In this document: positions 6,525 to 18,210 of the stretch, piece by piece | Layout of the letters: each line of letters opens with the position of its first letter | Numbering within the stretch: position 1 is the first letter of the stretch | NCBI GenBank assembly: GCA_963555825.3 | Contig: CAUVXB020000001.1 | Span: 928,001 to 992,000 of the forward strand | Reading direction: 5' to 3' | DNA from: Alphaproteobacteria bacterium | GTDB lineage: Bacteria > Pseudomonadota > Alphaproteobacteria > JAAXGF01 | DNA: 64,000 nucleotides | Made by a program: the position numbers and the translations under genes | Notes under the pieces: generated by a model | What the model saw: the letters and a program-made list of their open reading frames with translations, nothing else | What the model was told of the DNA's origin: nothing | Database searches by the model: none

Positions 6525-6677
6525 ATCGTTCGACACTCTGCCTCGCCACGGGTGTCCCCCAGGTACGGATAGCTTATCGGTATCAGTCTAGGAGAGGAGG
6601 ATGGCGGAGTCTAACGGTGCCGTGTCGATGACGGCCTTGGCCAAAAGCAGGCAGTGCGGGGTCTGCTTCAAGCGGGC

Positions 6678-6904
6678 CAAAGAAGAAGTCGAAGGCGCTC
6701 TCGGCATCCTTCCTGGTTTCGGCCATCCAGATGTCTTGCAGGCGCCCCTTGGCTTTCTTTTGCGGGGATCTGCTTCCCCAGGAGCGCCGCCAAGGCTTCC
6801 CCGCAAAAGGCTAGCGCGGCAGGATCGCCGACGTGAAGCGGATGGCGCCGTCCCCCCGGTCCCGCACACGGGGTTGGCGCACGCTCACCGGGCCGATCCC
6901 GGTC
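6678..6904 (-). mobile_element. Patchwork of collinear IS256 fragments
   Basis: Blocks identical to ~16210-16290, ~16720-16745 and ~16819-16911, in the same order and orientation. Confidence 0.8.
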
Positions 6905-7199
6905 GGAAGCGGACGCTGTGCGCCGACCTCGCCGACGTCTGCTGCTGACCCAGCCTGTGTGAAAACGCCGGCAAATCCCACTAACAGGAGAGTGTTCGGT
7001 CAATTCTTCGAAGGTGTCCTCTGATAAGATATTGATTTTGTTGAGTTTAGAAATTCGAGAATTCAGAGAAAATCGTGCCGATAGCGCTCGGGGGCGGTTT
7101 TTACACATGGCGTAACTCGGGGATCGGGCACTGCTCTCCTTAATGTAGCAACGACCGGCATGGGCCGGGCGAGCACACTGAAAGAGCAGGAGAGCAGCT

Positions 7200-8265
7200 A
7201 TGGAACTGTATGTTGGAATGGATGTATCGCTCAAGGAGACCTCGATACGCCGCCTTCATTTCAACGCCGTACACAAGATTCTGCGTGGTCGATGACAACG
7301 GCGAGATCGTGTCCGAGGGCGTGGTGATCTCGGAGCCGGCGGCAATCGCGGCGTATATCAGGACAACGGCGCCGCACGCAAAGCGCATCGGTCTGGAGAC
7401 CGGTCCGACGACGACCTGGCTGTGGCATGAGCTCAGGGCGCTCGGCTTGCCGGTGATCTGCATCGATGCGCGTCATGCCAAGGCGGCGCTGTCGATGCAG
7501 ATCAACAAGAGCGACCGGAACGATGCCGCCGGGATCGCGCGGATCATGCAGTGCGGTTGGTACAAGGAGGTCCAAGTCAAGAGCGTGGCGTGCCACGAGA
7601 TACGGGCCGTCCTGAACAGCCGGGCCCAGTTGGTCAAGATCAAGCGTGATCTCGAGAACCAGATCCGTGGCTTGCTCAAGAACCTCGGCCTCGTCATCGG
7701 CAAGGCGGGCGGCAATGTCTTCCGTCGCCGGGTCGAAGAGCTGCTTGGCGGGCAGGGTCTTTTGTCGGAGGCCGTTCGGCCCCTTCTGGAAGTCCGCGAG
7801 AAGGTCGGCCGAGAGATCGCCGCGCTCTATCGCAAGCTGCTGGGCCTGGCGCGGAACGACGAGGACAGCAGACGTTCCATGACGGTTCCAGGCATCGGGC
7901 CGATCACCGCCTTGGCCTTCCACTCGGCGATCGACGAGCCGAGCCGCTTCCGACGTTCCCGGAGTGTCGGCGCGTACATCGGGCTGACGCCGCGCCGCCA
8001 TGCTTCCGGCGAGGTCGATTGGACGGGGCGGATCTCCAAATGCGGCGATCGAATGCTCAGGACCTACCTCTTCGAGGCGGCCGGCGTGCTGCTCACCCGG
8101 GTGCCGCGATGGTGCGCGCTCAAGGCCTGGGGTCACAGGTTGTGGAAACGCATCGGCTTCAAGAAGGCCAAGATCGCCGTGGCACGGAAGCTGGCGGTCA
8201 TCCTCCATCGCATGTGGCGTGATGGAACGGACTTCATCTGGTCAACCAAGGAGGCGGCCGCATAG
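7200..8265 (+). pseudogene. IS110 DEDD recombinase/transposase, frameshifted by a 34-nt insert
   Basis: MELYVGMDVSLKETS then frame change to CVVDDNGE, GLETG, KSDRNDA, VPGIGPITA, GLTPRRHASG, ISKCGD. Confidence 0.88.
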
Positions 8266-8500
8266 GGAAACAACGTCCAAGCATTCCGCGAGAGCGGAAC
8301 CGATGTCCCTGTCGGGACGGCGGCGTCGGCGAGATCGATCCAGGCTTTGCGATGCCTCACCGAGGCAAGCGCGCTTCACACATTGATCCGCCAACGTCCT
8401 CCAACGCCATCATGCGGAGGGCCGAGCCCCTACCGCGGAGAGAACAGTGAACCCGGCAGGTACGTCACGGAGAGCTTGACAACCAACCCCCGAGTTAGAG
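8266..8500 (+). ncRNA. Putative bridge/seek RNA of the first IS110
   Basis: TCCAGGCT 8339-8346 and TTCACACA 8375-8382 match the target; ACGCCAT 8404-8410 and AGAGAACA 8439-8446 match the IS ends; boundaries approximate. Confidence 0.8.
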
Positions 8501-8624
8501 AACATTGATCCGCCAACGTCCTCCAACGCCATCATGCGGAGGGCCGAGCCCCTACCGCGGAGAGAACAGTGAACCCGGCAGGTACGTCACGGAGAGCTTG
8601 ACAACCAACCCCCGAGTTAGAGAA
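8381..8624 (+). repeat. Perfect 122-bp tandem duplication
   Basis: 8381-8502 equals 8503-8624. Confidence 0.95.
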
Positions 8625-8913
8625 CAGCCTGGACCCTATGCGGACATAAGACGTTCTGGGACCGCGTGCCTAATGTCGCCGCCATGACGGCGATTGATCC
8701 CGTAGCATCCCTGTCGCCCGACAGGACGGGCGTGTGCTGCGCGGGTCGAAGTGCGGACCACAGTCTTTCGTGACAGCTCGGGACCGAATACGCGGTCGGA
8801 TGCCCATTCCGCTGTCATTGTTGGCGGTTGTGAGAAGCCATCTGGGGAATTCCGGTTAAGACAGTGGCCTTCTCAACGACCGGCGTTCAAGATAGTACAA
8901 ACCCAATCGAATT

Positions 8914-13312: not shown

Positions 13313-13668
13313 ATGAAAGTTACCACTGTCGGCCTCGATCTGGCCAAGAACGTTTTCCAAGTCCACGGCATTGACAGCACCGGCAAGGTCATCGTCCGCC
13401 GATCGTTGCGCCGGCGCCAGATGATGCCGTTCTTCGGCAAGCTGGAACCGTGTCTGATCGGTATCGAGGCGTGCGGCACGAGCCACTTCTGGTCCCGCGA
13501 GCTCCAGGCATTGGGGCACGAGGTGAAATTGATGCCACCGATCTACGTCAAACCATACGTCAAGCGCGGCAAGACCGACGCCGCCGATGCGGAGGCGATC
13601 TGCGAGGCGGTGACTGACGCGCCCCACGATGCGGTTCGTCGCGATCAAGTCGGCCGAGCAGCAATCGG
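13313..13668 (+). pseudogene. IS110 transposase N-terminal fragment
   Basis: MKVTTVGLDLAKNVFQVHG, GIEACG, KTDAADAEAICEAV; small TGAC duplication near 13612; cut by the IS3-like element. Confidence 0.9.
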
Positions 13669-15847: not shown

Positions 15848-17222
15848 GAGCTATTGTCAAAAGTTGTGTATGGGCTGATCATGCGGCGGCGCGATCCTGG
15901 CGTTCTCCATCTACGAATTTGACGCCGCGAATGATCTCGGCGAGATGGTTCGATCCATCGAGTTTTCTCCATTTTCTCTGAGCGCACTGGCATAGTTTGA
16001 AGACCATGGCCATCGCCGTCTTGCGCGACAGGCAGCCCTTGGTCCGGTAGGTGCGCAGACGAACCGTGGCGAACGTGCTCTCGATGGGGTTGGTCGTGCG
16101 TACATGCTTCCAGTGCTCGGCGGGGAAGTCGTAGAACGTCAGCAGGACGTCGCGGTCCTTGGCCAGGCAGGCCGCGGCCTTGTCGTACTTCGGCCCGTAG
16201 GCTTCCAGGAAGAAGTCGAAGGCGCTCTCGGCATCCTTCCTGGTTTCGGCCATCCAGATGTCTTGCAGGCGCCCCTTGGCTTTCTTTTGCAGACCCTTGG
16301 GCAGCTTGTTCAAGACGTTGCCCGTCTTGTGAACCCAGCAGCGTTGCTCGCGGGCGCCTGGGTAGACTTGGCGGAGCGCCTTCCAGAAGCCGAGCGCGCC
16401 GTCGCCGAGCGCCAGTTGCGGACCCATTTCAAGGCCGCGCCGCTTGAGATCGAGCAGAACTTCGAGCCAGGACTGCTCACTTTCGCGATAGCCGTCGGCG
16501 ATGGCGATCAGTTCCTTCTGTCCCTTGTCCGTGGCCCCGACGATCACCAGGATGCACTGCTTCTCTTCCTCCATGCGGGCGCTGAAATAGATGCCGTCCA
16601 CCCAGAAATAGACGTAGCGCTTGGCCGTGAGGTCGCGCCGTTGCCAGCGCTCCGCCTCAACCCCCCAGACCTCTTTCAGCCGGGTGATCGTGGAGGCCGA
16701 AAGCCCCGGCGCGGAGCTCCCCAGGAGCGCCGCCAAGGCTTCCCCGAAGTCGCCGGTGGAAATGCCCTTCAGATACAGCCATGGCAAAAGGTCTTCCAGG
16801 CTCTTGGCGCGGCGCAGATAGCGCGGCAGGATCGCCGACGTGAAGCGGATGGCGCCGTCCCCCCGGTCCCGCACACGGGGTTGGCGCACGCTCACCGGGC
16901 CGATCCCGGTCTGGATGAAGCGTTCCGGCAGATATCCATTGCGGACAACCCGGCGGCGGCCGGCGGCGTCAACAAGCGCCGCATGGCTACCCAAAAACAC
17001 GGAGACCTCGGCCTCAACGGCTTGGGCCAACAACTCGCGAGCTCCAGCTTGTAGGACTTCCGTCAACGGATCTTTCTGAAAATCAGATGGGTTTTGAAAA
17101 GCAACAACGGTATTCTCTTTCATGGCGTATCCTTCCTTGGCTTAGCTCAAGTGGTGACATCAACAATCACCAGGATACGCCGCCTTCATTTCAACGCCGT
17201 ACACAAGATTCGGTTATAGCTC
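15848..17222 (-). mobile_element. IS256 family element, intact
   Basis: IRs GAGCTAT.../...ATAGCTC; 9-bp target duplication TTGCCAAGC at 15839-15847 and 17223-17231. Confidence 0.95.
15879..17123 (-). CDS. IS256 transposase
   Basis: YFWVDGIY, GDGALGFW, QRCWVHK, RTTNPIES. Confidence 0.95.
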   Translation of the reverse strand: MKENTVVAFQNPSDFQKDPLTEVLQAGARELLAQAVEAEVSVFLGSHAALVDAAGRRRVVRNGYLPERFIQTGIGPVSVRQPRVRDRGDGAIRFTSAILPRYLRRAKSLEDLLPWLYLKGISTGDFGEALAALLGSSAPGLSASTITRLKEVWGVEAERWQRRDLTAKRYVYFWVDGIYFSARMEEEKQCILVIVGATDKGQKELIAIADGYRESEQSWLEVLLDLKRRGLEMGPQLALGDGALGFWKALRQVYPGAREQRCWVHKTGNVLNKLPKGLQKKAKGRLQDIWMAETRKDAESAFDFFLEAYGPKYDKAAACLAKDRDVLLTFYDFPAEHWKHVRTTNPIESTFATVRLRTYRTKGCLSRKTAMAMVFKLCQCAQRKWRKLDGSNHLAEIIRGVKFVDGERQDRAAA

Positions 17223-17720: not shown

Positions 17721-18038
17721 TTGTTCTCGCCTTCCTCGGAGAGCCGGAGCACCGTCGCGCCGCCATTTCCCAGATAACCTTTAAACCGGGATTCTCCAGA
17801 TGGCTTCTCCCAGCCACCTACAATGATAGTAGAATGGGCATCCGAGCGTGTATCCGGCTCTGCACTGGCACAATCGGCTGTCGTACGCACTTGATCGGGC
17901 TGATGTGTGACCTTATCGCTTTGTGTGTCATCCCGGTACGCTTGGGACAGTCGGTACGCTTTTAAGAGACAGACTTCTGACGCTGGCTCGCCGCCTTCGC
18001 CGTCTGCTGGTGATCGGCATGACATCACAGCTTCAATC

Positions 18039-18210
18039 GGCACGGCGCAAGCCCGAGGTTCACCCCTGGATCACCAACTTGCTGGTAAGCAAGCCCAACA
18101 AGCTGGTCGCCGTGGCCATGGCCAACAAGGCCGCGCGGATCGCCTGGGTCATCATGACCCGTGGCGAGGCCTACCGCGCTCACCGACCCGCAACTGAGGA
18201 GACCGCATGA
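18039..18210 (+). pseudogene. IS110 transposase C-terminal fragment
   Basis: HPWITNLL..KPNKLVAVAMANKAARIAWVIMTRGEAY. Confidence 0.85.

Follow-up and report, generated by a model that had tools for sequence, protein, structure and literature searches.

What leads an insertion sequence (IS) to settle at one and the same position inside the terminal repeat of another transposon family? The question is raised by a stretch of 64,000 nucleotides from an alphaproteobacterial genome (assembly GCA_963555825.3, contig CAUVXB020000001.1, positions 928,001 to 992,000), analysed as a whole and here called the window, in which an IS at 7108-8626 interrupts the end of a short repeat. Our analysis indicates that this element is very probably a dead copy of an active insertion sequence of the IS1111 group (IS110 family), one whose insertion into IS1182-type ends is guided by RNA. 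Site and orientation specificity, the absence of a target duplication, a conserved strand-specific fold and covariation between guides and targets are all directly observed in the sequences compared here.

The genome (two contigs, 6.04 Mb; positions outside the window are given as G000 with contig C1 or C2) holds six full copies, A to F, which are 97-100% identical to the window copy, copy A, and >99.6% identical to one another outside inserts. Copy A lies on the forward strand (7108..8626), begins with TGGCGTAACTCGGGG and ends with ...GAGTTAGAGAACA (to 8626). It consists of the canonical 1363 bp plus a 34-bp insert and a 122-bp duplication; the length of 1519 bp implied by an earlier note on this DNA, which does not mention the duplication, is not the canonical one. 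The element is preceded by TTTACACA (7100-7107) and followed by GCCTGGACC (8627-8635). When these flanks are joined they read GGCGGTTTTTACACAGCCTGGACC, which is the uninterrupted end of intact copies of the repeat, with a single ACA and no target duplication. The ACA at 7105-7107 and that at 8624-8626 can be assigned to neither target nor element: the left half of the target has one ACA in common with the right end of the IS, and the exact crossover is therefore unreadable from the sequence. The layout of 7100-8636 proposed in the earlier note, including the repeat end that is rejoined on removal of the IS, was thus borne out; the CA that it had named as the shared core does lie within the shared letters, which are however ACA.

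The transposase gene (7200..8265, forward strand) is intact in copies B, C and D, where it encodes 343 aa, within the 330-350 aa range of IS1111 transposases. In copy A the 34-bp insertion (7247..7280) disrupts the reading frame after codon 15, and copies E and F have a 2-bp deletion in common. Even the broken frame matches PF01548 (DEDD_Tnp_IS110, E = 2.8e-13) and PF02371 (Transposase_20, E = 1.9e-22), and the intact copy reaches 252.3 bits (cut-off 140) with the NCBIfam model NF033542, 'IS110 family RNA-guided transposase'. The stretch GLTPRRHASG aligns with GLTPRRYESG of the IS621 transposase, so that the conserved-serine motif G--P----SG, the serine of which would be catalytic, is present. 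This motif is given for IS110 family transposases in PMC11187229 (here and below, statements on published systems refer to the accessible parts of the cited texts).

In the canonical element 92 nt upstream of the gene and 238 nt downstream of it (8266-8503) are noncoding. Near the ends lie subterminal inverted repeats, a feature of the IS1111 group, where they measure 7-17 bp and mostly 11-13 bp (PMC11187229), with the left arm TAACTCGGGGATCGG at 7113..7127 and the first copy of the right arm at 8483..8497, both on the forward strand; the first right terminus ends at 8503. Their core (TAACTCGGGG and CCCCGAGTTA) is perfect over 10 nt and 87% identical when extended to 15 nt, and the two arms change together in homologues, where TAATTCCGGG pairs with CCCGGAATTA. 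Beyond the repeats we draw terminal extensions of 5 nt on the left (TGGCG) and 7 nt on the right (GAGAACA), the ambiguous ACA allowing anything from 8/4 to 5/7. Assignment to the IS1111 group follows from the subterminal repeats, the long 3' noncoding region and the 343-aa transposase, with the terminal extensions as the exception; that an IS110/IS1111-type element occupies 7108-8626, as had been supposed earlier, is confirmed by its domains and by the first two of these features.

The interrupted repeat is 170 bp long, short and noncoding, and occurs in 11 copies in the genome, five of them intact. Its body in the window (6947..7107) is 92% identical to the intact copy at G000:C2:579215-579384. 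The left inverted repeat occupies 6947..6969, and its reverse complement contains TTCACACA; of the right inverted repeat the inner part, ending ...GGCGGTTTTTACACA, lies at 7093..7107 in the flank of the IS and the outer 9 bp at 8627-8635, which places the insertion point 9 bp from the repeat tip. The ends, GACCCAG(N)CTGTGT(A/G)AAAAC, are the same as in a 1.67-kb element, of which, with closely similar ends, 29 full-length copies are present. The 487-aa protein of this larger element scores 451.5 bits on NF033551 (IS1182; cut-off 270) and carries the domains DDE_Tnp_1_6, DUF772 and DDE_Tnp_1. Because its ends are common with those of the IS1182-model-matching element, the 170-bp repeat is probably a MITE (miniature inverted-repeat transposable element) of an IS1182-family transposon; the IS1182-like nature that the earlier note had ascribed to the target agrees with the score of the parent. 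Either MITE end can serve: in the MITE at C1:1664674-1664825 one end is taken by copy B and the opposite end by the relic of a related element.

The 3' noncoding region contains four motifs that match the target and the ends of the element. The core of a predicted bridge RNA (or seekRNA) extends over 8304..8464 on the forward strand; it would be closed by a long-range stem (8304-8316 with 8452-8464) and is preceded by a 5' hairpin at 8284..8299 (helix 1), which shows compensatory changes and is poorly aligned. Within the long-range stem, a second stem (8322-8337 with 8384-8398) closes an internal loop. On the 5' side of this loop is the target guide UCCAGGCU (DNA TCCAGGCT, 8339..8346), complementary to the top strand of the right target half AGCCTGGA (8626..8633) with an 8/8 match, and on its 3' side the target guide UUCACACA (DNA TTCACACA, 8375..8382), which has the sense of the top strand of the left target, would pair with the bottom strand, and is identical at 7/8 positions to the left target half TTTACACA (7100..7107). 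The two guides match flank halves that overlap by a single A, and are separated by a hairpin (8348..8373) that folds in 33/33 homologues despite differing letters. Further 3', the donor guide ACGCCAU (8404..8410) is the complement of the left IS end ATGGCGT and the donor guide AGAGAACA (8439..8446) is identical to the right IS end; both stand in a multiloop and flank a second hairpin at 8413-8437. All guides and target halves are given on the forward strand. The spaced pair TCCAGGCT...TTCACACA has one match in the 64-kb window, and 0/100 shuffled versions had any. The pair ACGCCAT...AGAGAACA occurs twice (8404-8446 and 8526-8568), because 8380-8501 is tandemly duplicated as 8502-8623.

The fold was derived from 33 of 69 usable loci, picked for diversity. 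In these sequences 90.6% of the cells of the consensus are paired, a share that drops to 38.5-43.9% if the 3' partners are shifted by 1-3 columns; in 13 pairs both members vary, and pairing in the four well-aligned helices is 98% or more. For the 39 pairs of the four main helices, 98.8% of cells pair on the transposase strand and 84.8% on the other strand, with 185 G-U cells, which suggests that the RNA would be sense to the gene. A single-sequence fold of 8266-8504 (z = -2.57) leaves part of the guides paired with each other, and we therefore relied on the comparative fold. Of what the earlier note had expected here, the four guide motifs are all found at the coordinates that it gave, and the target guides do lie in an internal loop; the donor guides, which it had likewise placed in internal loops, lie in the multiloop.

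A scan of one genome per species gave 80 homologous loci with transposases 69-90% identical, mostly in alphaproteobacterial metagenome bins and Bradyrhizobium. With one copy from the present genome added (81 loci), 12 lacked a recognisable end pair by the patterns used, leaving 69, and four more (L077, L092, L102 and L109; odd-length guide columns or missing flank) were dropped, leaving 65. The 3' noncoding regions align over their full length, with varying letters in the target motifs and fixed surroundings, and the 65 loci hold 24 distinct guide pairs, one of them AAAATCGG/TTGCAACA. The reverse complement of the 5' guide agrees with the 8 nt after the element at 8/8 positions in 21 loci, 7/8 in 25 and 6/8 in 12; the 3' guide agrees with the 8 nt before the element at 8/8 in 58 loci, 7/8 in six and 6/8 in one. 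When flanks were shuffled among the 47 distinct combinations, the mean match fell from 6.43/8 to 4.51 for the right guide and from 7.83/8 to 6.11 for the left guide, and 0/5000 shuffles reached the observed value in either case. Paired changes of guide and flank are seen on the right (AGCCAAGA, AGCCTCGG, AGCCAGGG, AAAATCGG, AGCATCGA) and on the left (TATCAACA, CTGCAACA, TTTCGACA). The 7-nt and 8-nt matches of the donor guides to the joined ends are present in all 69 loci with both ends. Covariation of the guides with target and donor had been set beforehand as the test on which the proposal could fail: both target guides covary over the 65 loci, whereas the donor guides are nearly invariant.

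The neighbours of the homologues point in the same direction. In 25 of the 80 loci an IS1182-like transposase is encoded in the left flank, in one orientation or the other; its identity to this genome's own IS1182 transposase is 23-78%. In the Bradyrhizobium diazoefficiens plasmid pNK6c, a relative adjoins a gene annotated 'ISPsy6, transposase'. The right flanks share a pattern of five variable letters, GG(C/T)C and a GCAGAC-like motif. These neighbours and the common right-flank pattern suggest that the clade uses IS1182-type ends, with guides fitted to the local variant.

Within the genome, all six copies sit at GGCG(G)TTTT(T/C)ACACA followed, across the insertion point, by G(C/T)CT..., in one orientation relative to the repeat. 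The prediction that other copies would be found in the target TT(C/T)ACACA followed by G... therefore holds for 6/6 copies, with the same site and the same orientation, and these copies together with the IS1182-like genes beside 25/80 homologues uphold the idea of a guide set specific for IS1182-type ends. Six of the 11 MITEs are occupied, versus 0/29 full-length IS1182 copies. The target guides predict the 15-mer TTCACACAGCCTGGA, of which no perfect empty site exists in the genome; of 12 sites with one mismatch five are occupied and seven empty, and all 27 sites with two mismatches are empty, while the site of copy B deviates at three positions. Between the guides and the ends of full-length IS1182 copies there are 2-3 differing letters (AG(G/T)CTGG(G/A), CTTACACA), the two IS1182 ends reading AGGCTGGG/AGTCTGGG and CTTACACA...AGTCTGGA. 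In this genome the element is thus in effect specific for the MITE variant of the repeat.

By analogy with published IS1111 and IS621 systems, in which such an RNA is made and bound by the transposase, we propose the following course of events. The element would encode a DEDD/serine recombinase, and its 3' noncoding region, read on the transposase strand, a bridge RNA of ~160-180 nt. It would excise as a circle with the junction ...AGAGAACA joined to TGGCGT..., and the sense RNA of the 3' region would bind the recombinase. The multiloop donor guides ACGCCAU and AGAGAACA would pair with the joined ends of the circle, and the guides of the internal loop would hold the target, with UCCAGGCU paired to the top strand of AGCCTGGA, and UUCACACA to TT(C/T)ACACA on its bottom strand. 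Strands would then be exchanged within the shared ACA, probably at AC, if the chemistry follows that of the relatives. The expected outcome is an insertion 9 bp from the tip of the IS1182-type repeat, in one orientation and without target duplication.

What such an insertion means for the MITE, of which the earlier note inferred the element to be a hyperparasite, is a separate matter. Rather than being attacked, IS1182-type ends may simply be a safe, multi-copy, horizontally travelling site at which insertion has no consequence seen by selection, and we give this possibility an even chance. The five intact MITEs and all 29 IS1182 copies are free of this IS, IS1111-type elements use repeated neutral sites such as repetitive extragenic palindromic (REP) sequences, attC sites and Tn21 ends (PMC11187229), and other IS110-family groups in the genome use neighbouring repeat motifs; none of our results speaks against it, although the insertion splits the outer 9 bp from the rest of the repeat, which should disable that end. 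The point concerns consequence, not mechanism, and is compatible with RNA-guided insertion.

The right end of the element is itself a site of rearrangement. In the window copy, 8502..8623 is a perfect tandem repeat of 8380-8501 (122 bp) and contains second copies of the donor guides (8526-8568), of the right subterminal repeat (8605-8619) and of the right end. Four copies out of six have a tandem duplication at the 3' end, its period being 122 bp in A, 23 bp in B, 203 bp (twice) in C and 630 bp in D, and the homologue L077, from another metagenome bin, has a 142-bp duplication (L077 2762-2914) with GAGAAC joined to GGGCG and an AAC microhomology. In 5/5 events the duplication has one border at the element's right terminus, to within the last A. 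The junction microhomologies are ACA, ACA, GAAC, AC and AAC; all contain AC, which argues for a crossover at AC. The inner border of copy A's duplication lies in the final ACA of the DNA for the left target guide (GCGCTTCACACA, then TTGATCC), with the duplicated copy starting at 8380, and this DNA is a perfect match to the element's own guide on one side only. When the inner borders were checked as half-sites, the window copy matched the left guide at 9/9 positions, copy D and L077 at 4 or 5/6 and copies B and C at AC(A) only, the events being few.

We best read these duplications as half-match (one-sided) recombination by the element's own recombinase. IS621 can recombine at sites that match one arm and the core (10.64898/2026.08.31.748434), natural IS110 loci have tandem noncoding repeat units beside the transposase genes, with matches almost only to the right-end donor half (10.64898/2026.08.14.744561), and sub-element circles are formed by ISPpu9 (PMC12288879). 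Ordinary slippage during replication, or unequal exchange between homologous stretches, with no part for the recombinase, would account for the short junction microhomologies (AC to GAAC) and for a guide-like inner border in the window copy only; it is nevertheless improbable, since five independent events (23, 122, 203, 630 and 142 bp) are all anchored on the right terminus, and since the duplication is present in 3/3 copies with an intact transposase versus 1/3 broken copies. Similar 3' tandem arrays also occur in 4/7 copies of a second, unrelated IS1111-type group of the genome (350 bits on the IS110 model; G000:C1:170339-171316, C1:2234828, C2:1404160 and C2:2096697), the array at C1:170339 repeating a 134-bp unit whose junction lies at the right terminus (...GTCCACACATG followed by GGACCC), whereas 30 loci of the other groups scanned show no long-period repeat and a single 16-bp one. 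The preprint units next to IS110 transposase genes, with their right-end donor half only (10.64898/2026.08.14.744561), speak against slippage as well. With recombination by the element itself as the preferred explanation, the link from duplication to guide gene rests on one event, and the duplications are not new in kind.

A wider picture can be drawn, which we put forward tentatively and hold below an even chance. The clade (transposases 69-90% identical, mostly in Alphaproteobacteria) might live on IS1182-family transposons, its guides reprogrammed stepwise after repeat variants and each insertion disabling an end; the right end might also recombine with its own guide gene, a perfect half-target, to give the 122-bp duplication and tandem bridge-RNA modules.

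Several observations weigh against RNA-guided insertion as set out above. The terminal extensions (5-8 nt left, 4-7 nt right; sum 12) do not fit the IS1111-group rule of 7 bp on the left and 3 bp on the right beyond the subterminal repeats (sum 10; PMC11187229). The left guide has one mismatch to 5/6 occupied sites and the right flank of copy B matches at only 6/8; in 7/65 homologous loci the right guide matches at five positions or fewer, and between the left-end guide and the left end a single mismatch persists in most homologues. Because related loci have guide and target in common by descent, the shuffle control makes the loci look more independent than they are. Donor motifs and IS ends are nearly invariant, so that their support comes from complementarity only. 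No Rfam match was obtained in 6800-8800 (E up to 1), and a promoter scan of the integrated copy gave no sigma-70-like promoter. Contigs from RNA libraries cover the region, those of runs X1-X3 matching parts of 8175-8700 at 100% (four runs compared), but contigs are unable to prove transcription, ends or strand; one of them joins 8379 to 8502, where de Bruijn assembly may have collapsed the 122-bp repeat.

That the choice of target instead falls to the protein, or to DNA-DNA contacts made by the IS ends, with the motif matches a by-product such as remnants of old targets, would suit a predicted RNA without an Rfam family, library contigs that do not establish transcription and a T-rich, little varied left target whose matches are partly cheap (shuffled mean 6.11/8), yet we consider it very improbable, because in 24 distinct pairs the guide letters shift with the flanks and the helices around them do not change, the strand specificity of the fold shows in its 185 G-U cells, and the same architecture is a proven RNA guide in IS1111 relatives (PMC11187229).

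The principle of such targeting is known, from the guide RNAs described for the group since 2024 and from IS4321/IS5075 in transposon ends, and the IS1182-end target is a new example of it. IS4321 and IS5075 were reportedly found by Partridge and Hall in 2003 to insert in Tn21-type terminal inverted repeats. Like the window element they are IS1111-type and sit within another transposon family's terminal inverted repeat, at a fixed position and in one orientation. Their target is a Tn3-family repeat, whereas here it is an IS1182-family repeat in environmental Alphaproteobacteria, and their transposases are only ~24% identical to that of the window element, which indicates a separate lineage with a different target. 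Our literature searches gave no account of an IS110-family element with IS1182 ends or MITEs as its target, although the 2024 supplementary target tables may list one.

Closer in architecture are ISEc11, ISKpn4, ISPst6 and ISPa11, whose seekRNAs were described by Siddiquee et al. 2024 (PMC11187229). As far as the accessible text goes, these elements share with ours the 3' noncoding region, the subterminal repeats, a protein of 330-350 aa and the motif GL-P----SG, and in their seekRNAs, too, the complement of the top strand lies 5' of that of the bottom strand and the two matches overlap in the target. They differ in their targets, which are a linear site, attC sites and REP sequences, in extensions that sum to 10 nt as against 12 here, and in that our RNA is predicted. 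The bridge RNA of IS621 (Durrant et al. 2024, PMC11208160; structures 8WT6 and others) likewise has two programmable guide sets, for the target and for the joined ends, and its transposase a C-terminal serine-motif domain; the alignment between the two transposases covers only the C-terminal 144 residues (E = 3e-9). In IS621, by contrast, the left end holds the bridge RNA, internal loops carry both guide sets, the guide order is reversed and the core dinucleotide is CT, whereas here the core lies within ACA. Donor-binding nucleotides in a multiloop are described for many IS1111 orthologues (PMC11208160). With the half-match preprints (10.64898/2026.08.31.748434 and 10.64898/2026.08.14.744561) and the ISPpu9 study (PMC12288879) our duplications have in common the tandem noncoding units, the right-end donor border and partial modules that reuse the terminal boundary. 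Those reports cover IS110-group elements or ISPpu9, the available text of 10.64898/2026.08.14.744561 has no occurrence of 'IS1111', and, unlike the cases in these accessible texts, one inner border here lies in the DNA encoding the left target guide.

The homologues form a natural reprogramming series, in which a near-constant scaffold carries 24 guide pairs, each with its own target, and which should be useful for working out the pairing rules of IS1111 elements, the less-studied branch: guide length, tolerated mismatch and single-base overlap. IS1182-family ends and their MITEs join the list of transposon ends that serve as landing sites, and a single genome shows MITE ends being told apart from those of the parent IS by one or two bases. 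The right-end duplications, as natural footprints of one-sided recombination, are relevant to the off-target activity of bridge recombinases.

Other elements of the genome lie at or near the same repeats. At two loci (G000:C2:1506017-1506304 and C2:2409230-2409509; ...GTCCACACATG meeting ACCCAGGCTGTG...) the second IS1111-type group adjoins the outer tip of the MITE family described above, so more than one IS1111-type lineage may use the MITE. Further IS110-family groups (319-340 bits; G000:C2:2558634-2559614, C2:2179271-2180251, C2:1013327-1014307 and C2:1017319-1018299) start after ...GCAGA or ...CTCATAA in REP-like GCAGAC/GTCCGC palindromes, which in two cases sit 9 nt outside a MITE or IS1182-type tip. 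The right inverted repeat of six IS1182 copies (G000:C2:1095935, C1:400951, C2:1744844, C2:2033828, C2:1508511 and C2:2643116) is interrupted between CTTA and TACCAGTGAGC, 4 nt from the studied site, by another repeated element. IS1182 copies are flanked on both sides by the semi-conserved nnnnGCAGACnT.

Relics of related IS1111-type elements (G000:C2:2842354-2842537, L010; C1:346345-346465, L013; C1:1664415-1664673, L011) carry a ~45-nt hairpin insert (TGAGG..GACCGT..stem-loop..GCGTAAGC..GAA), the stem of which differs between copies by compensatory changes; the bridge RNA's long-range stem contains two of these inserts and the transposase gene one. By eye, a hybrid promoter could be drawn across the circle junction (TTGACA in the right end, a spacing of 17-18 nt, then AGAACA/GAACAT); its second hexamer is poor and we do not claim it. 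Run X4, a marine-sediment RNA library, yielded hundreds of short contigs 90-99% like the element when compared with window positions 7000-8700, and relatives thus appear common in marine sediment.

The window as a whole is an IS-rich stretch. The 34-bp insert that breaks the transposase gene has an exact counterpart ~12-45 nt in from the left end of an IS256-family element (414-aa transposase), and a 38-mer surrounding it has 39 other exact copies in the genome, one copy lying at window position 17174. Microhomology of 1-3 nt at both borders makes the insert look like templated filler DNA and not the product of transposition. Reading frames at 6600-6930 repeat the peptides EEVEGALGILPGFGHPDVLQAPLGFLL and RREADGAVPPVPHTGLAHAHRADPG, which are also found antisense to the IS256-family transposase gene, pointing to fragments of an IS256-family IS directly left of the MITE. 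Two more fragments matching the IS110 model are present at 13325-13651 (111 bits) and 17989-18168 (28.6 bits) of the window, that is, G000:C1:941325-941651 and 945989-946168.

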